Source: a virus. Taken from it: DNA of 64,000 nt. Positions 35,614-43,207 of this stretch are shown here, in pieces. The DNA is taken from IMG/VR virus record IMGVR_UViG_3300009506_000019, positions 102,062 to 166,061 of that record, one strand, 5' to 3'. The notes under the pieces were generated by a model. The model was not told where the DNA came from. It made no database searches and worked only from the letters and a program-made list of their open reading frames with translations. Made by a program: the position numbers and the translations under genes. The stretch's first letter is position 1, and each line of letters starts with the position of its first letter.

Positions 35614-36087
35614 TTACTTCTCCAGAGCTTGTGTTGCTAAATAAGTAGTGCCGAATACTACAGCCCCACCCACCATTAAACCATAAATGAAAGTCGCTTT
35701 GGGACTCTCATACCATGACAGCTCTGGCGGATTGAGATCCGGAAGATGCTTCATCGCTGTGTCAAACATGCTCCTATTGAGATTGGAAAGATCGAGATAT
35801 GATTGATTCGAAAGTTTATATGCATCAACCGCAGACTGCAGAGCTTTAATCTGCACGTCCTGATTGTCGATAATATCGAGAGATAACTTCAACTTGGTAG
35901 ACACCAAGTCAAGCAGAAGCTCGGCGTCTTCTTTTGGAAACCAAACGCCTTCCTGACCTTGATGTTTGAGTGGAACGGACTGAATGCCCTGAAGTTGCTT
36001 GCGGATTTCTTCTCGATTCAGCTTCTGTCCAAGGGCAGGAACACTAAATGTCGAGATGATTAAAACGATCAGAAATTTCATCGGCAT
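35614..36087 (-). CDS. Signal-peptide, coiled-coil, C-terminal TM protein (spanin-like position)
   Basis: MKFLIVLIISTFSVPALG/Q signal; C-terminal FIYGLMVGGAVVFGTTYL. Confidence 0.5.
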   Translation of the reverse strand: MPMKFLIVLIISTFSVPALGQKLNREEIRKQLQGIQSVPLKHQGQEGVWFPKEDAELLLDLVSTKLKLSLDIIDNQDVQIKALQSAVDAYKLSNQSYLDLSNLNRSMFDTAMKHLPDLNPPELSWYESPKATFIYGLMVGGAVVFGTTYLATQALEK

Positions 36088-36382
36088 CCATCCCTTGGCT
36101 CTCGTATTTCTTTTGGAGATCGCCCTTTTGCTTCGAGATCGCCTCGCCAGTTTCCTTGGCAATCTTCTCAGCCTCCTCGGCCTTTATCTTACCGGCCTCA
36201 GCTTGAGCCTTGGCAGTGGCTGCCTTATCCTGCAAATCCTTGACTTTGTTCTGTACGAGTCTCTCCAAAAGTAGGGCCGTCACCCTTTTACGAAGCTTTT
36301 CGTTGGCTCCGACCAGCACCAATAGGACAATGAGCCCTACTGCTATCAAGCCGAAGACTACCCATCTGACGTACTTCTTCAC
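36044..36382 (-). CDS. N-terminal TM plus coiled-coil protein (i-spanin-like)
   Basis: GTG start at 36382 overlapping the upstream stop; VRWVVFGLIAVGLIVLLVLVG TM, then Ala/Lys/Glu coil. Confidence 0.5.
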   Translation of the reverse strand: MKKYVRWVVFGLIAVGLIVLLVLVGANEKLRKRVTALLLERLVQNKVKDLQDKAATAKAQAEAGKIKAEEAEKIAKETGEAISKQKGDLQKKYESQGMDADEISDRFNHLDI

Positions 36383-36747
36383 TGACCCTCTTCTTCTTTT
36401 TGACCCCTGCCGTAGTAGGCACCTGCAGCCATATTCACACCCTGAAGACCCAATAGGCCCCACAGAGTATAAAGCATGGAATTTGGAATTGGGTCTGTGA
36501 CCGTAGCCGTTTCTGCCACTGCCTCAGGCTTGACTACCCACAGAATGATCATCACCACGAATAGTACCACACCCATGATGATTGATACCAACTTCTGTAG
36601 CTTCGTCAGCGATACGGCGAGATGCTTTTCGCCTTCAGCGTTGGTCTTGGTCGTCATGATCAAAGCGCCAAGCCACTTCCAAGCCTGGTGTTTGGTGGCA
36701 TCAGCAACTGCTGTCAACTTGCTTTCGGTCTTCTCTTCTGGCATCAC
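36379..36747 (-). CDS. Two-TM membrane protein (holin-like)
   Basis: 122 aa, two hydrophobic helices, charged C-terminus. Confidence 0.5.
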   Translation of the reverse strand: MMPEEKTESKLTAVADATKHQAWKWLGALIMTTKTNAEGEKHLAVSLTKLQKLVSIIMGVVLFVVMIILWVVKPEAVAETATVTDPIPNSMLYTLWGLLGLQGVNMAAGAYYGRGQKEEEGQ

Positions 36748-37136
36748 GCACCTCCTGGATCGGCTGCAGCCATCTGATACACCGTGACATTCACCGGGTT
36801 TGCGCCATTATTGGTGATCAAGACATCTGATTTTGCAGCAAATGGCTCAAATACTGCCCCTTTTTCTTTGTGCATGCCACGAGTCGGTGGCCTAAACTCT
36901 TCTTGAGGAACTTGAAACACCTTGGTCATACCAGGAGCAGCAATGGCAGCAGCGCCACCATCATTTACTCCGGCAAAACGTGGCTGAGCGCTGACATTGA
37001 TGGTGCCAGCGCCCGCCACGTGTGCCCAGACTTGGTAGTGCCGGTATGGTGTACCGGACTCGAGCGTGGCCGTGGCTGATTCTCCATTGGCAAGTCGAAA
37101 CGTCTTGATGTTGCATAGATACTCAGTCAGGGCCAT
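36744..37136 (-). CDS. Small beta-rich virion protein
   Basis: 130 aa, GAGGTG RBS. Confidence 0.5.
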   Translation of the reverse strand: MALTEYLCNIKTFRLANGESATATLESGTPYRHYQVWAHVAGAGTINVSAQPRFAGVNDGGAAAIAAPGMTKVFQVPQEEFRPPTRGMHKEKGAVFEPFAAKSDVLITNNGANPVNVTVYQMAAADPGGA

Positions 37137-37144
37137 AGCTCACC

Positions 37145-38086
37145 TCATCCTGCTGCTTCAGCAGCTTGTTCTTCGGCCTCTTCCTGCTCTTGGACGAGGC
37201 GTCCCATTTCCATCTTTGCCCACTTCTTCACGGTCTTGTAGTACCCGTGGGCTCGGATGTGCTCGTAGTCATCAATCTTGAGATTCGGAATTTCCTGCAG
37301 AGCTTCGAGAAGATCAGTCGCAGGCATGCGCTGGTTCTCTTCCAACTCCGCCTTCACCTGATTGCAGAGATGGAGTACACGAGGACTGATGACCTCATCC
37401 TCTGACACCAACTCGCTCGGAGCAACGCGCTGACGCTCGCCAAAGCGAGCGGCACCACCAGGGCCTGTTCCCTTTTCGATGACCTCGTGAATGGGCGCTG
37501 GTTTTTCATCGGTGACGTTTTCTCTCAACGTCTTGTCCGATGTGCGACGACGCTTTTCTTCAGCCATGTCGATCGCAGCGTCCACATCAGGATCTCCGTC
37601 TGCCGTCACCATGCCACGAGCCTTTGCTCGTTTGGCGTAGTACGCCTCATACTCCTCTTGAGAGAGAAGGTTGAGAACCGGAGGTCTGCGACTCAGCAAC
37701 TTCCGAAAGTCCATCGAATTCTTGATTGCGATGAACGGAATGTGCTGTGTCAGGTTGATGGGATCCCTGATGGATGGAATGGTGAACCCCTCGACGCGAC
37801 CCTCGCCCATGTTGAACTCGAGCGAAAGTTGAGCATTCGAGATGTTCTGCACGTAAACGTCCCGCTCCTCTCTGAAATACTCTGTGAAGTTTCTGACTGC
37901 CATGTTCTTTCTCCTGATCGAGGCTGCGGACTTTGGATGGAGAAGCTGGATGGCAAACGGGTCTTTGGAGAAGACTCGGGCTTTGCCTTCCTTGATATAC
38001 TTCCGCGCCAGTGCTGGCCTGGCATACTCCAAGAATCGCTTCTCGGAGTCTAACACCATTACTTCTGCGGAAGGCCGCTTCGCCAT
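37145..38086 (-). CDS. PLMP/RRXRR-like N-terminal domain fused to a phage head-region protein; internal in-frame start at 37903
   Basis: VMVLDSEKRFLEYARPALARKYIKEGKARVFSKDPFAIQL matches the IscB N-terminal pattern; AGGAG-N7-ATG at 37903. Confidence 0.75.
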   Translation of the reverse strand: MAKRPSAEVMVLDSEKRFLEYARPALARKYIKEGKARVFSKDPFAIQLLHPKSAASIRRKNMAVRNFTEYFREERDVYVQNISNAQLSLEFNMGEGRVEGFTIPSIRDPINLTQHIPFIAIKNSMDFRKLLSRRPPVLNLLSQEEYEAYYAKRAKARGMVTADGDPDVDAAIDMAEEKRRRTSDKTLRENVTDEKPAPIHEVIEKGTGPGGAARFGERQRVAPSELVSEDEVISPRVLHLCNQVKAELEENQRMPATDLLEALQEIPNLKIDDYEHIRAHGYYKTVKKWAKMEMGRLVQEQEEAEEQAAEAAG

Positions 38087-38282
38087 ACACAGGCCGTTCC
38101 TCTTTGTTTGTGTCGCCGAAGCAACACGGGTCTTTCACCCACCTTGTCCTGCTCGCCCGGCTTATTCCGGACGAGGAGACAGTTTGTACCACCCCGAAGG
38201 GCAGCCTCTCTGCCGAAGCAGAGGTAAAACCCGGCAGAGCAGCGGTGGAACCACTCTGCCGGGTGTGAACTACCTCAGGCCG
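38087..38282 (-). ncRNA. Structured intergenic RNA element (six hairpins, three UUCG loops) between MCP and the PLMP-domain gene
   Basis: Stems at 38110-38127, 38128-38140, 38145-38181, 38188-38205, 38208-38223 and 38221-38276; G-U pairs and C(UUCG)G loops favour the minus strand. Confidence 0.65.
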
Positions 38283-38284
38283 TA

Positions 38285-39586
38285 CTACTTGTGGCCCTTC
38301 GCAACCGCACGGGCGTTCGGGATACCGAAGCCGATGATCTGACCGAAAGCCCAGCCCTTGACCAGGCGACGGTGCGAGAACATGTTGAACGGCTCGGAGA
38401 ACAGCTCGACGCGGACGCCCATCTCACCGAGGTACTCAGAACCGGTGACCGCATAGAACGTACCCGCAGGCACGACCTCTTCGACACCGGTACCAGCTGC
38501 CGTGATGATCTGAGCATTGAGGATGTTGCCGATGTACCCCGCGAGGATCAACTCACGCTCGGTGACCGGATCCACGTTGGTGGACATCGTTTTGACAACA
38601 TCGGAAAGCTCGGCACGGTTGATGAGGAATTTCTCCACCATCAAGCGGTGACGCTCAACCTGGTAGCGAACGTCCTCGAAAGCCGAGATACCGAGAGTCG
38701 CGAAGATCGTCTCGGCGTTCACGGTGACGGCTGCGCGGTCAAGCAGCGAGAGACCACGCTTGTCCTCTTCCAGCTCGATCTCCTGACGGGCAGTGTCCTG
38801 AGCACGATCGAGGACATCGTAGTTCATCTGGTAGATGTCCTCGATATCCACGGTCGGGAAGGCCGTGACCTTGAACTCGGAAGGCTGGATGAAACGACCA
38901 TAGAGCCGAGACTCGATGGACTGACCATCCTGACCAACCACCCACGCGGTGGAACGAACGTCCTTCGCGATACGGAACAGCTCGCCCTGGGCGAGTGGCC
39001 GTACGCGGTAGACCTTGCGAGCCCACCCCTCGTAGTCGATGATGTCCTTGATCGGGAGCAACAGCTCCTGGCCGACGATGGCGAAGCCTTCACCGGTCGG
39101 ATCTTGCATCGCGGATGCGAGAACCTTGCGGCGATCCTCGGCGGGCATCTGGTTGGACGCCTCACGATAGAAGGTGCCTGGGGACGCCTTCTTCGTGACG
39201 GTGTTCAACAAGTAGGCGATCTGTTGCAACGCGTCCTTGTCATCGTACGCGTTGACCTGACCGGTCTTGTCGAACATGCGCTCCGACAGCTTGGTGTTGC
39301 CGACTGCCTGACGAATGCCGTCGCGGGTCACGTCGCCAGCGTAGGCGGTCGGGTTGAACTGACCGTCTTGGTCCCAGACCTGCTCTTGCTGACGATCAGT
39401 GAAATGTTGGCGGCTGTGTGCGGCCACACGTTCCTGGTCCACCTGATGCTGCTGGACGGCCTGCGGTGTGACCGAGTTGGCCATCATACGCCGCTGCTCT
39501 GGCGTTGGTTGAGCCGGAACCGGGACCTGCGGACGCGCCGCCGCTCCGGCTGCAGCAATACGTCGGTATGGATTCTGCACCTTCAT
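38285..39586 (-). CDS. Major capsid protein (HK97 fold) with N-terminal propeptide
   Basis: PIKDIIDYEGWARKVYRVRPLAQGE...DVLDRAQDTARQEIELEED...GFGIPNARAVAKG; strongest codon bias in the window; AAGGAG RBS. Confidence 0.9.
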   Translation of the reverse strand: MKVQNPYRRIAAAGAAARPQVPVPAQPTPEQRRMMANSVTPQAVQQHQVDQERVAAHSRQHFTDRQQEQVWDQDGQFNPTAYAGDVTRDGIRQAVGNTKLSERMFDKTGQVNAYDDKDALQQIAYLLNTVTKKASPGTFYREASNQMPAEDRRKVLASAMQDPTGEGFAIVGQELLLPIKDIIDYEGWARKVYRVRPLAQGELFRIAKDVRSTAWVVGQDGQSIESRLYGRFIQPSEFKVTAFPTVDIEDIYQMNYDVLDRAQDTARQEIELEEDKRGLSLLDRAAVTVNAETIFATLGISAFEDVRYQVERHRLMVEKFLINRAELSDVVKTMSTNVDPVTERELILAGYIGNILNAQIITAAGTGVEEVVPAGTFYAVTGSEYLGEMGVRVELFSEPFNMFSHRRLVKGWAFGQIIGFGIPNARAVAKGHK

Positions 39587-39624
39587 TGTTGGAATCTCCT
39601 TGTGAAAAGTCTCAAAGCTCTCAA

Positions 39625-39674
39625 AGGCAACGAGCGGCGAACCCGGTTAAGGGCTCGCCGCTGCCGGATTGCCT
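39625..39674 (-). promoter_or_regulatory. Strong hairpin in the MCP leader
   Basis: AGCGGCGAGCCC-TTAACC-GGGTTCGCCGCT, extended by AGGCAA/TTGCCT. Confidence 0.55.
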
Positions 39675-39675
39675 A

Positions 39676-40461
39676 TCAGGTCACAACGACAGGATCGCCA
39701 CCCATCCGGACACCGAGGAACGGATCGTCGGCAGACGGAACTTGGATGACATGACCCACGAAATCACCCTCACCAGCGTCGTTGGTGAAGAGACCTGCCA
39801 AAGCGGGAGTTGCCCCACCGCAGTACAGGTTCTTTCCAACGCCAGTCATCGTGTACGCACGCGAGGTGTCGTATTGCGATGTGAAGAGGATGGTCGCATC
39901 CGTGATGACTGTGATGCGGCTATCCGCGATGGTCACGTCATCGTTGCGGTTGAAGAAGTTTTGTCCCTGGAACTCGAGGTCCCTGGAACTCAACTCCCAG
40001 GTGTAGGTGACCCACACCGTGGTCGCAACCGGGATGCCGCCAGTGCCCACTTGTGTGACGGTACCGTTCACGGCCGAAACCGTGTAGTCCGTCGTCACCG
40101 TGTAGGCGGTGCCTGCCAGATTCGGCATGTCACGGATCTGGAGGTTGCTGACGTTGGCATGCTTCAGGTTGAACGTTGCATCGGCGGCTGGGAACGAGAT
40201 TGCCTCATCGACCTGAGCGGCCTTCAGAGACAGCGCCTTGTTCCACTTGGCCACGCCAAGAACGGGCTTGCTGACGCACGTGATGATTTCACCAGCATCG
40301 TCTTGTGAAACCAACATCCCTTGTTCAAAACTTGCGGCTTCTGCAGCCTTCCAGATGCCTGTGTCCTGCAGAATGACGCACCGACCGAGGTCCAGCCCAC
40401 GTGGGAAAATGTCCGACTGGAATGATCCCAGACGAGGGCTATCAAGTCCCACTGCACCCAT
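39676..40461 (-). CDS. Capsid decoration/cement protein
   Basis: Between scaffold and MCP; ITVITDATILFTSQYDT...GHVIQVPSADDPFLGV; AGGAGG RBS; high GC3. Confidence 0.7.
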   Translation of the reverse strand: MGAVGLDSPRLGSFQSDIFPRGLDLGRCVILQDTGIWKAAEAASFEQGMLVSQDDAGEIITCVSKPVLGVAKWNKALSLKAAQVDEAISFPAADATFNLKHANVSNLQIRDMPNLAGTAYTVTTDYTVSAVNGTVTQVGTGGIPVATTVWVTYTWELSSRDLEFQGQNFFNRNDDVTIADSRITVITDATILFTSQYDTSRAYTMTGVGKNLYCGGATPALAGLFTNDAGEGDFVGHVIQVPSADDPFLGVRMGGDPVVVT

Positions 40462-40485
40462 TGTTTTTACCTCCTAGTTGCAGTT

Positions 40486-40508
40486 AAAAATGGGGCGGCA
40501 TAGCCCCC
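40486..40508 (-). terminator. Weak intrinsic terminator-like hairpin after the protease/scaffold gene
   Basis: GGGGC-TATGCC-GCCCC-ATTTTT. Confidence 0.35.
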
Positions 40509-40516
40509 GTTAAAGT

Positions 40517-41839
40517 TCACGCTCCCAAGCTACTGCGGCTTGAAGCAACCTTTGTTGTCCCAACAGCCTTTCGAATCGCATCGCGCTTGTTGTCTCGCGG
40601 CGAGCCGTGGACCGAGGGCTCTGAGTCGCTTGATGTCAGCTGCAGATTGCCTGCCGCAGCTCGTTGACGAAGCTCATCGTTTTCACGAGAAGCAATGCGT
40701 GCAGACGGAACTGGTTGAGTCGGCGGTACGATCGCAATCATGTTCTTGAGGTCTGCTTCGATCTGCATGAGCGACTCATCGCTCATCTTCATCACCTCGC
40801 CGGTTCTCTCAATGAGACCGTCGATGTATGCTTCCCATGCTGGTTTGTCTGTGCCTTCAACCAACGGCTCGTTGATCGAAGCTTCGACCAGATTGACCGC
40901 CAAGGCATCGTCCATCGGCTCGTACTCATATCCACCACCAAGTGGACGTGGATTGAGCAAAGCTTCAGTCATCGCCTCTTTGATCGGAGAATGCTCGAGA
41001 TTCAAAGATTGACGACGAGCGACAATCTTCATGGCCCGCACAAAGCGATCGGTGAAGGTATCGAAGAATTGCTTCTTCTCCTTCTCAATCTCAGCGATCT
41101 TGGCCTCCAACCGCTTGTTATACAGAGCCTCGAGTCGAATAGCATGCTTGCGAGCATCGGCCGTATCGATCTCGGCCTTCTTGTCGTCCTTGTCGTCCTT
41201 CTTCTTGTCCTTCAGGTTCTCTGGGAACTTGCCCTTCGCAGCATGCTTCTCTTTGTGATCGAGCGTGACATCATCGAGCGTGCTCTTGTTCATGTTGAAT
41301 TCCTCACGCTCGTCACGTTGGTCCGTGTCGTGCATCTCGGTGACAGACAGATCGCTCGGATTGCGATCATGCTGCTCGTCTTCGAGATCGGTCTCTCGAC
41401 CTTCGAGAACATCAACACCCTTGTAGTCCTTGGTTTCGTGTCTCTCCTGTGCATCGGTCTCTTCACCGGCACCCGTGGCACTGGCTGGAGCACCAGGACG
41501 TGCCTCTTGAGTGTCTTGATCTGCTTGTTCCACCACGGAATTGGTGTTGATGCGGTCCTTGTTCAACATGTCGTCCATGTAATACTCGAGGACCTGAGCG
41601 AGGCGAGGACCAACGATGGCATTAGTGCGGCGAATGGTCCCACCCATACCGTGCTCGGCAATCATGGTGAGCACATCCTTGGCCAGCTCTTGCTTTTCCT
41701 TGCCAGCAACCTTGCTGTCGTTCGGAACCCTGGAGGGTTTTACGACAAACAACGTACCTTCTTTGTCGAAGATACGAACATTGCCAGCTTCCGTGATTTC
41801 TGCCTGCAGATGCTTGTATGAACCAGCAAAGCGAAGCAT
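40517..41839 (-). CDS. Nested in-frame scaffolding protein
   Basis: AGGAGGT at 41846-41852, 6 nt before in-frame ATG 41839 (MLRFAGSY), right after a Pro-rich linker. Confidence 0.65.
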   Translation of the reverse strand: MLRFAGSYKHLQAEITEAGNVRIFDKEGTLFVVKPSRVPNDSKVAGKEKQELAKDVLTMIAEHGMGGTIRRTNAIVGPRLAQVLEYYMDDMLNKDRINTNSVVEQADQDTQEARPGAPASATGAGEETDAQERHETKDYKGVDVLEGRETDLEDEQHDRNPSDLSVTEMHDTDQRDEREEFNMNKSTLDDVTLDHKEKHAAKGKFPENLKDKKKDDKDDKKAEIDTADARKHAIRLEALYNKRLEAKIAEIEKEKKQFFDTFTDRFVRAMKIVARRQSLNLEHSPIKEAMTEALLNPRPLGGGYEYEPMDDALAVNLVEASINEPLVEGTDKPAWEAYIDGLIERTGEVMKMSDESLMQIEADLKNMIAIVPPTQPVPSARIASRENDELRQRAAAGNLQLTSSDSEPSVHGSPRDNKRDAIRKAVGTTKVASSRSSLGA

Positions 41840-43207
41840 CGATGGACCTCCTGAATCTTTGGTTTTTCCGTTATTCGAGCCACGCTTCGGCGGAGGAGCA
41901 ACTCCCATAGCTTCAGGAGTAAGTTGCTGCCCCGGACCTGCAGGCGTGAGGCCCATTTCTTCCGGAGTAAGTTCTTCGATGGGGGTACCAAGAGCTGGAG
42001 CCTCTTCCAAAGGTTCTCCAGACTCGATCTCTACCCCACCACCTTCACCAACATTAATATTGACCGTAACACCAGGTTCCTCTTCACCTGGCATCTCAGG
42101 CGCTCGTGGAGGAACTGCTGGGGCTGCGGGTTCTTCGCCTGGTGCAGCTGGAGGAGGCGGTGCCACCTGCGCAGTCTTCTGGAGGCTGGCAAATTTCTCC
42201 TCGATAGACTGCTCCAGCTGCCTAACCTTCGCCTGAAGCATCAGAATCTCAGACTCATTGCGAAGCTGATCGTCCTTCTCTAGCTGCGCAACCTTGGCAG
42301 AAAGCTGGAGAATCTCATACTGCTCAGCTTTGACATCGGCCGGATCATGCACTCGACTATATTCGTCGAATACCACACCCTCACACCACTCAAATGCCTT
42401 CGCAACTCTTCGTGGTTTTGCGGCCGTTTTGTCTTTGCTGTCGTGACTGATAATAAATGCGATCGGATTGAAATCCGGCTCGCTGTCATCGTATTCTTTA
42501 CCCTTGTTGCGTGCGATGTGGTTGCAGAACTCGCTACGCGTGTAGGCTACCTTGCCGCACACATTGCATCTGGTGCGAATACAGGAGCAACCCATTGATC
42601 CATTCTTGAGAATAGCATTTTTGACGCCATTGGCAAATGCTGGATCTTTTTGAGTATCAATGGCGATGAGCAACTCAACGAATTCGTCTTTGACGACCTC
42701 ACCGCACTTGCGGCAATGAATACCTGTCTCCGGATCGCGGCCGTCTTCTGATGCTGTCTTATTGTGACAATTTGGGCACTCATCAAGAGGCGCTGAAGAA
42801 TCGTTGTAGTGTGCGTCAACGATAAAGCCTCTTGCGTTTTTCGGATTGTCAGCACGATGATTGATGTGATGAGGCTTGTTTTCGTAGGTACGATATACCT
42901 GCTTGCCGAGACGATGATCAAATCTCAACAACTCGTGCTTGTGAAATGCGTCTTTGTTCTCGTTCGGAACATTGGATGTGTTACCACGAATGGCTTCGAA
43001 GATGTAATCGCCTGGATTGGGAGAGATATCATACTCATCAGCCAACATTGCGAGCTTCTCTGCCAAGTCGATGGACTTACGACCACTGAGAAACTCACTT
43101 CGGCTCTCTCCTTCATAGGCGGCTGTGCGTGTGAAAGATTCACCCTCAGTCACCGCAACAGCAAGAGTCTCCACCGAGGCGATTTTCACAAAGCCCTTTT
43201 TCTTCAT
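40517..43207 (-). CDS. Prohead maturation protease (HK97/assemblin-type) fused to scaffold
   Basis: NENKDAF, KPHHINH, GFIVDA, GSMGC and FDEYSRVHDPAD motifs; CxxC insertions; long acidic/coiled C-terminus. Confidence 0.82.
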   Translation of the reverse strand: MKKKGFVKIASVETLAVAVTEGESFTRTAAYEGESRSEFLSGRKSIDLAEKLAMLADEYDISPNPGDYIFEAIRGNTSNVPNENKDAFHKHELLRFDHRLGKQVYRTYENKPHHINHRADNPKNARGFIVDAHYNDSSAPLDECPNCHNKTASEDGRDPETGIHCRKCGEVVKDEFVELLIAIDTQKDPAFANGVKNAILKNGSMGCSCIRTRCNVCGKVAYTRSEFCNHIARNKGKEYDDSEPDFNPIAFIISHDSKDKTAAKPRRVAKAFEWCEGVVFDEYSRVHDPADVKAEQYEILQLSAKVAQLEKDDQLRNESEILMLQAKVRQLEQSIEEKFASLQKTAQVAPPPPAAPGEEPAAPAVPPRAPEMPGEEEPGVTVNINVGEGGGVEIESGEPLEEAPALGTPIEELTPEEMGLTPAGPGQQLTPEAMGVAPPPKRGSNNGKTKDSGGPSMLRFAGSYKHLQAEITEAGNVRIFDKEGTLFVVKPSRVPNDSKVAGKEKQELAKDVLTMIAEHGMGGTIRRTNAIVGPRLAQVLEYYMDDMLNKDRINTNSVVEQADQDTQEARPGAPASATGAGEETDAQERHETKDYKGVDVLEGRETDLEDEQHDRNPSDLSVTEMHDTDQRDEREEFNMNKSTLDDVTLDHKEKHAAKGKFPENLKDKKKDDKDDKKAEIDTADARKHAIRLEALYNKRLEAKIAEIEKEKKQFFDTFTDRFVRAMKIVARRQSLNLEHSPIKEAMTEALLNPRPLGGGYEYEPMDDALAVNLVEASINEPLVEGTDKPAWEAYIDGLIERTGEVMKMSDESLMQIEADLKNMIAIVPPTQPVPSARIASRENDELRQRAAAGNLQLTSSDSEPSVHGSPRDNKRDAIRKAVGTTKVASSRSSLGA

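Follow-up and report, generated by a model that had tools for sequence, protein, structure and literature searches.

The best-described counterpart of the RNA analysed here is omega RNA (HEARO, RF02033), the partner of IscB and IsrB (PDB 9K30, 7UTN, 7XHT and 8DMB). The tandem terminal hairpins of omega RNA are the binding site for the PLMP domain of these proteins, a domain that also touches the Shine-Dalgarno (SD) sequence just 5' of its own open reading frame (ORF) (PMC9581776, PMC9640706). A 'nexus' pseudoknot connects a hairpin loop with the strand beside those terminal hairpins (PMC9581776, PMC9640706), and a role in controlling IsrB expression was proposed by the authors of the IsrB work (PMC9581776).

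What might such a grip on the start of its own message do for a protein that has no nuclease? Autogenous translational operators are known from several systems: the pseudoknot in the leader of T4 gp32, the sites bound by T4 RegA, and the leaders of the ribosomal proteins S15 and L20.

Here we analyse the gap between two genes in a 64,000-nucleotide stretch of viral DNA, referred to below as the window. A first-pass annotation, made from the letters alone, had marked this gap as a candidate non-coding RNA or switch with competing pairings and had linked it to a neighbouring PLMP protein. We find a conserved and pseudoknotted RNA leader that accompanies the gene for that protein across a range of upstream contexts. 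RNA and protein look like a borrowed pair of IscB/IsrB ancestry, reused for controlling the PLMP gene.

Results

A structured RNA between a capsid gene and a PLMP-domain gene

Upstream of the gap lies the gene for an HK97-fold major capsid protein of 433 amino acids (38285-39586, minus strand; NCBIfam capsid_Caudo_2, 3e-44; PHROG 2522, major head protein, 4e-57). Downstream lies the gene for a protein of 313 amino acids (37145-38086, minus strand), which consists of a PLMP domain, a linker and a phage core domain of ~250 amino acids. The minus strand is the sense strand for both genes and for the structured RNA, and all features of the leader given below are on that strand. The conserved element runs from ~38264 to ~38073; it is an RNA leader of ~195 nt that starts in the gap and ends inside the downstream gene. 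The first ~20 nt 3' of the capsid stop codon are not conserved among relatives. G+C content is 52-59% in the capsid region (window 36000-42000), compared with ~45% in the rest of the window.

When folded as RNA, positions 38264-38073 form seven hairpins (H1 to H7), three of which carry C(UUCG)G loops. The minimum free energy (MFE) of the sense RNA is -99 kcal/mol (z = -5.67), a value equalled by none of 200 shuffled sequences; the antisense (plus) strand gives z = -2.0. Because G-U pairs are frequent, we assign the structure to the sense RNA. The three C(UUCG)G hairpins that had first drawn attention to the gap are real, at 38223-38208, 38205-38188 and 38127-38110. CTTCGG occurs 36 times in the 64-kb window, and only these three copies close a stem of at least 5 bp. 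Of 300 Markov-1 simulations, 3 produced a same-strand cluster of at least three within 110 nt. The other sequence elements noted on first reading, GAGGUA with UACCUC, two copies of GGCAGAG, and ACGGCCUG at both ends, are likewise all found on the minus strand.

Architecture of the leader

The leader opens with H1 (38229-38264), a 15-bp hairpin of the form ACCCGGCAGAGUGGU-UCCACC-GCUGCUCUGCCGGGU, followed by UUUUACC. In the alignment of relatives 93% of its cells pair, and both sides have changed in 14 of the 15 pairs; the loop, UCCACC (38249-38244), is nearly invariant. Within this loop CCACC (38244-38248) forms the 5' strand of a pseudoknot whose partner, GGUGG (38143-38139), lies just 5' of H5. 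RNAalifold chose this helix unprompted on a structure-blind alignment, and 99% of its cells pair. There is one compensatory change, CAACC/GGUUG in the relative L105, and two more changes stay paired as G-U. Two G residues are common to the pseudoknot and H5; the change in L105 speaks for the pseudoknot rather than for the outermost pair of H5.

H1 had been read as terminator-like. A 15-bp hairpin followed by U4 (UUUUACCU) is indeed present. Our scan, which defined an intrinsic terminator as a GC-rich hairpin with at least five U in eight, did not list it, and H1 is kept in relatives in which no gene precedes it. It may be a weak or leaky terminator. The outer stem that had been drawn around it, GAGGUA/UACCUC, is kept in some relatives with another gene before the leader and is not general; where a promoter-like site abuts H1 it is impossible.

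The linker UUUACC leads into H2, the first C(UUCG)G hairpin, which is followed by AG (38206-38228). This module has the motif UUUAC[C-stem-loop-G]AG and reads UUUAC[C UCUGC UUCG GCAGA G]AGG over 38228-38206. Five of the six pairs of H2 covary, and the closing C-G pair is invariant. In one relative the UUUACC-H2 module is duplicated in tandem (L008:4285-4330; UUUACCUCUGUUUAACAGA twice). The similarity between H1 and H2, which had suggested a switch in which CUCUGCC chooses between two partners, is confined to this genome and missing from the aligned relatives, and we abandon the switch. The direct repeat ACGGCCUG is also a property of this genome: it is present at both ends here and is not conserved.

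H3, the second C(UUCG)G hairpin (38188-38205), folds in every full-length relative from sequences that differ; it is misaligned in both of our alignments, and the 57% of cells that pair there in the model alignment should be read with this in mind. Next come ACAAACUGU, a conserved stretch of single strand, and H4, a hairpin whose two tiers are an outer stem of 5 bp and an inner stem of 9 bp (together 38146-38187). The single strand reads A(C/U)AAACUGU across relatives. Eight of the nine shared pairs of H4 covary, 96% of cells pair, and the two-tier shape folds in all 22 of 22 sequences.

The 3' part of the leader begins with AAGGUGG (CAAGGUGG), which contains the 3' strand of the pseudoknot and overlaps H5, GGGU-GAAAG-ACCC (38128-38143); this sequence is nearly invariant. 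H6, the third C(UUCG)G hairpin (38110-38127), shows changes on both sides in seven of seven pairs, with 97% of cells paired, and is followed by a conserved CACAAAC. The leader ends (38073-38102) with the SD sequence GAGG (38102-38099) and H7, a weak hairpin that encloses the AUG (38086-38084). Most relatives have a hairpin around the AUG (-6 to -13 kcal/mol), which in L163 and L004 is broken up in the MFE fold. Three of the five pairs of H7 covary with codons 2-3.

An overlapping ORF of 181 amino acids with a GTG start (38192-37647) was considered and rejected: the loops of relatives differ in length by numbers not divisible by three, and sequence variation tracks the pairing.

The structure is supported by covariation

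We assembled ~100 loci from relatives of the capsid gene (IMG/VR), relatives of the 313-amino-acid protein (metagenomes) and contigs retrieved through protein identity. Scanning IMG/VR with a pattern yielded 65 loci; the five kept after a profile search were all in the locus set already. Among GenBank phages there is a single relative, Rctr197k. A first alignment, of five gaps, showed conserved single-stranded blocks together with stems that change on both sides.

The covariance model R1 (195 positions, 49 pairs) matches the window at 38072-38270 with 174 bits, and it matches 21 other loci with E-values from 1e-23 to 1e-56 (to 1e-57 for all 22, the window included). Four more loci match at 1e-51 to 1e-55, and two of the 25 loci outside the window are identical copies of one contig. 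In the 166-kb genome R1 has one match.

How much of this agreement could come from fitting the alignment to the model? The proportion of cells paired is 88.8% in the model-fitted alignment and 82.9% in a structure-blind MAFFT alignment. Sliding the 3' partners by 1-3 columns reduces these values to 40-46% and 42-49%, respectively. Pairs changed on both sides number 46 of 57 in the model-fitted alignment and 45 of 53 in the MAFFT alignment. The covariation score is 0.573 in the former (0.10-0.13 when slid) and 0.468 in the latter (0.11-0.15 when slid); in each alignment none of 500 shuffles attained it. A search for covariation had been suggested as a check on the RNA: six further helices covary beyond H1, so the element is more than one terminator.

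This RNA is absent from Rfam. A search of the region at E-values up to 10 gave chance-level matches only: the best reached 22.5 bits where the gathering score is 84, and RAGATH-10 scored 15.9 bits on the wrong strand. The RNA family is new in the sense that Rfam does not contain it.

The leader belongs to the downstream gene

To which of its two neighbours does the element belong? The proposed tie to the PLMP protein is borne out by the relatives: the leader always stands directly 5' of the orthologous PLMP gene and ends in its start, whatever precedes it. The capsid gene precedes the leader in the window and in L004, L005, L006 and L008. In L007, L011, L163 and L170 an ORF of ~191 amino acids lies between the capsid gene and the leader, and in L165 an ORF of 312 amino acids does so. 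(The ~191-amino-acid ORF, MKVLLGNPGSNPLSLD..., is found at L007:4326-4901, L011:4198-4779, L163:742-1317 and L170:1554-2129 and is missing from the window.) In other relatives a promoter-like sequence, TTGCCA-N17-TATTAT, sits in AT-rich DNA and ends 0-30 nt 5' of the leader (L106:420-448, L122:1278-1306). In L168 and L169 the genes upstream of the leader are divergently transcribed. Because the linkage holds across these upstream contexts, we regard the element as the 5' leader of the downstream gene and not as an appendage of the capsid gene; in this genome it doubles as the 3' UTR of the capsid mRNA.

Two side observations concern the upstream DNA. TTGCCA-N17-TATTAT was also spotted by eye in L136 and L144 and is possibly the promoter consensus of this phage group. 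In L031 (3396-3653) the capsid match is split because a group I intron (RF00028, 75.6 bits, gathering score 50) interrupts the major capsid gene of that relative.

The leader was found in every close relative with enough upstream DNA. The three truly PLMP-less relatives (L016, L160 and L159), which make up the whole negative side of this co-occurrence test (n = 3), have only a plain SD, alone or accompanied by a terminator hairpin, and lack the leader.

In distant clades the start codon is preceded by a reduced leader made up of H1, UU(A)ACC, H2, GAG(G) and an H5-like hairpin. The PLMP ORF there uses the GAG(G) of the H2 hairpin as its SD, and the H5-like hairpin, GGG..CCC or AGC..GCU, lies just before the start codon. 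The clade of the window has gained H3/H4 and H6 by insertion, as well as a new SD. A model of H5 and H6 (R2) found no second copy of this pair in the genome and none in the distant PLMP loci.

The downstream protein carries a PLMP domain without a nuclease

The PLMP domain occupies residues 7-56 (nt 38068-37919, minus strand) and is recognized by PF14239, by NF040563 and by its fold. Residues 9-56 match positions 1-48 of PF14239 (RRXRR) with 32.5 bits (cut-off 25), and the match to NF040563 (NCBIfam guided_IscB) covers positions 1-48 only. No profile match to RuvC or HNH was found in the 313-amino-acid protein. An AlphaFold (AF2) model of the protein has a pLDDT of 82, and its nine best PDB matches are IscB/IsrB-omegaRNA complexes; the alignment to IscB/IsrB in the structure searches is confined to residues 7-60. 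VIA-align places residues 7-56 on TbaIscB with a Z of 8.4 and 1.8 Å over 50 amino acids, and on DtIsrB with a Z of 8.0. The family profile matches TbaIscB at 9e-9, and the phage PLMP-domain profile retrieves genuine IscB proteins, with full RRXRR and HNH, at ~1e-11. The eponymous P-L-M-P motif is missing: all members of the close phage family have F-L-E-Y at the corresponding positions. We conclude that the PLMP domain of the phage protein, the only one in the phage genome, is homologous to that of IscB/IsrB in sequence and fold.

For the core domain (~250 amino acids) we found no convincing known fold; the Z values, 6.7 at most on helical repeats, are within the noise of the tool. Its BFVD matches are uncharacterised proteins of PaBG-like large phages only, and it is a member of a head-module protein family. 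Word-based searches with the PLMP region alone returned family members and no longer proteins. The PLMP profile matched 2454 representative clusters, many of them of 52-150 amino acids (proteins P0119-P0263). These short matches are stand-alone mini-proteins or fragments at contig ends; one protein of 846 amino acids has 16 partial repeats.

A conserved internal start

Just behind the PLMP domain the gene contains a second initiation signal: an internal SD, AGGAG (37915-37911, minus strand), and an in-frame ATG (37903-37901, M62). An SD-like site 7-12 nt 5' of the internal ATG is present in 23 of 23 relatives, as AGGAG in 20 and as AGGA or GAGG in three. It is nearly always supplied by an AGG AGA codon pair and is kept despite a change from R to S in L103, although several of these genes use AGR for only a minority of their Arg codons. 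From this pattern in the sequences, the gene probably gives two isoforms, a long one with PLMP and core and a PLMP-less short one with the core.

Gene callers often choose the internal start; in L170, for example, the PLMP frame is intact 5' of the called start. Because the internal start is conserved, we take many of the truncated ~250-amino-acid 'PLMP-less' versions of the protein in databases to be artefacts of gene calling.

Relation to omega RNA and distribution of the H2 motif

The first-pass annotation had seen none of the usual HEARO motifs and had concluded that this is not a canonical omega RNA. We agree: RF02033 (gathering score 83 bits) has no match at E-values up to 10 in the region and none in the 166-kb genome, and the same model scored 105 bits on a genuine IscB locus (L178) and 85 bits on an IsrB-like one (L179). 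Run with filters off against the two genuine IscB/IsrB loci, R1 and R2 gave nothing above 8 bits. Those loci do contain a short motif, AC[C-hairpin-G]AG(G), of the same form as the H2 module of the phage; it ends 18 nt (L178) and 10 nt (L179) 5' of the AUG.

Counted by script, the H2 motif is present in 44 of the 63 distinct PLMP leaders, with several of the others falling just short of it; unrelated viral DNA has ~1 copy per 10 kb on each strand. It was not found in the three truly PLMP-less relatives. The proposed link to omega RNA rests on this short motif and on topology. The motif, with its SD-like GAG and anti-SD-like ACC, would also fit generic SD-sequestering hairpins.

Five further copies of the H2 motif lie on the coding strand of the genome, three of them just before starts in the window. 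In its strict form, T[TA]ACC-hairpin-GAG, the motif occurs nine times in the genome, eight times on the coding strand, against 2.7 +/- 1.5 expected. Strict copies lie 6, 22 and 30 nt before the starts at window 21239, 35161 and 52536 (minus strand). Another UU(U/A)ACC-hairpin-GAGG site is at G000 94749 (minus strand); these four sites are 3-30 nt before start codons of other genes. They could be additional PLMP operators, or hairpins of a general kind that sequester the SD.

The Rctr197k-like leaders (L001, L024, L026, L028, L031 and L032) share ACCGGC..GCCGAGGC(A/G)..AAC. This resembles the HEARO 3' tail (..GGCGAGGCGAAC..), with CGAGGC(G/A)..AAC in common, a likeness that is unproven; the HEARO model gave no significant or partial match in these leaders.

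Discussion

A proposed operator role for the leader

We favour, at somewhat better than even confidence, the reading that the leader is a PLMP-bound translational operator, with the long isoform binding its own leader in autogenous repression and the internal start constitutive. Both the binding of this RNA by the PLMP domain and its effect on translation are things that we infer. The PLMP domain and its hairpin site would have been taken over together. The oldest part of the leader would be the hairpin UUUAC[C...G]AG(G) and the small GGG..CCC hairpin after it, which we liken to the SD-bearing terminal hairpin before the start codon of genuine IscB/IsrB genes, where PLMP sits on omega RNA in the solved structures. 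The long isoform would bind its own leader through the PLMP domain, and this binding would limit initiation at the upstream AUG. The internal AGGAG-ATG, being constitutive, would escape control and yield the PLMP-less core protein; the leader would in this way set the ratio of long to short isoform.

One feature of this clade complicates the model. The H2 module lies ~120 nt 5' of the AUG, and the gene is served by the second SD, GAGG, next to H7. Blocking of the SD by PLMP bound at H2 thus cannot by itself account for control here. Repression in this clade would act through the folded whole: the pseudoknot, H5/H6 and H7.

Alternatives

Could the leader regulate its gene without any protein? 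It might be riboswitch-like, thermosensing, a ribosome-standby site, or an attenuator with H1 and U4 as a leaky terminator. A riboswitch aptamer with its expression platform typically has conserved unpaired stretches, a pseudoknot and a hairpin at the start codon, the GC-rich H1 with its U4 comes right after a very highly expressed gene, and ACC-hairpin-GAG sites stand before other phage genes too. A protein-independent RNA leaves unexplained why the leader is present in close relatives with enough upstream DNA and absent from the three PLMP-less ones, and why the same hairpin motif precedes genuine IscB/IsrB genes. It has no Rfam riboswitch match to call on, and the one known job of PLMP is to hold hairpins just 5' of its own ORF (PMC9581776, PMC9640706). 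We regard this explanation as rather unlikely.

A second alternative is that the RNA is more than a control site: the leader, or a processed piece of it, might stay on the long isoform in a functional ribonucleoprotein (RNP) and act in trans as an assembly cofactor, a virion component or part of a regulator of several late genes with UUACC-hairpin-GAGG sites. Seven helices and a pseudoknot far exceed the needs of a simple operator, the strict motif is in excess in the genome with three copies just before starts in the window, and the core domain is of a head-module family. Against this, the whole RNA and its H5-H6 module each occur just once in the genome, the extra sites are not seen within 2.5 kb downstream of the gene in relatives, no terminator separates the RNA from the ORF, and there is no sign of processing. 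We consider such an RNP unlikely. A related reading makes the locus a domesticated OMEGA piece, in which the 3' module of omega RNA (nexus-type pseudoknot and SD-bearing terminal hairpins) and the PLMP grip were captured together and now form a nuclease-free, trans-acting RNP; this RNP would regulate several late genes with UUACC-hairpin-GAGG sites or be an RNA-containing head-assembly factor. It seems to us just as doubtful.

Very improbable, finally, is a plain cluster of stability or terminator hairpins of the T4-intergenic CUUCGG type, or a self-cleaving ribozyme separating the capsid mRNA from the downstream message. In its favour, three very stable C(UUCG)G hairpins and the U-tailed H1 come after the late gene that is most abundant, and in distant relatives one long hairpin stands behind the capsid stop. 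Against it, relatives keep the helices, the pseudoknot and the single-stranded motifs but not the UUCG loops, the RNA tracks the downstream gene even behind a promoter-like site with no gene before it, no other stemmed CUUCGG hairpin exists in the window, a plain cluster already fails on the covariation beyond H1, and no ribozyme family matches at E-values up to 10.

Implications

If the operator model is true, the locus is a natural case in which only the RNA-binding module of a Cas9 ancestor (PLMP and the hairpin that it grips) has been retained and reused, without the nuclease, and the PLMP-hairpin contact is workable as a self-standing RNA-protein switch. The pair is small, ~60 amino acids and a short hairpin, and could be a compact orthogonal part for translational control. 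PLMP reuse may be far wider than IscB/IsrB. Our literature search gave no paper describing phage PLMP proteins that lack a nuclease, nor one on an RNA-PLMP module. If our reading holds, a well-supported structured RNA family with seven covarying helices and a pseudoknot is also added to a large group of uncultured phages of ~160-200 kb, and the conserved internal start accounts for many of the short database versions of the protein.

Comparison with known systems

Three kinds of known RNA resemble the leader, each in part. Like T4-type leaky terminators and C(UUCG)G hairpins, it has a GC-rich 15-bp H1 with U4, 21 nt after the capsid stop, and three UUCG tetraloops. Unlike T4-type terminators, its U-tract is below threshold, H1 with its invariant loop is kept where no gene precedes it, and six more helices covary.

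Autogenous operators offer a closer parallel. There, as here, a structured or pseudoknotted 5' leader lies beside the SD and AUG of the gene for the proposed binder, and the setting is that of phage late or structural genes. The phage locus differs from them in that its putative binding domain is borrowed from a transposon nuclease and that a second, internal start escapes the leader.

The closest known system is omega RNA with IscB/IsrB. The phage RNA, like omega RNA, stands directly 5' of an ORF that begins with PLMP and runs into it. Its hairpins H5 and H6 lie beside the SD (H5, H6, SD and H7 at 38140-38073, with the ORF start at 38086), and in its pseudoknot a hairpin loop pairs with the strand that immediately precedes tandem small hairpins. 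There are differences as well. The phage protein, unlike IscB/IsrB, is without RuvC, bridge helix, HNH and TI domain, and its PLMP reads FLEY; the partner of the RNA here is a phage head-module protein. Helices H3, H4 and H6 have no detected counterpart in omega RNA. The sequence 5' of H1 varies with its context (capsid 3' end, another ORF or promoter-like DNA), and neither a conserved or guide-like single strand nor a transposon context was seen. The phage RNA shares with omega RNA its place before a PLMP-initial ORF, the arrangement of pseudoknot and hairpins beside the SD, and the hairpin form AC[C...G]AG(G).
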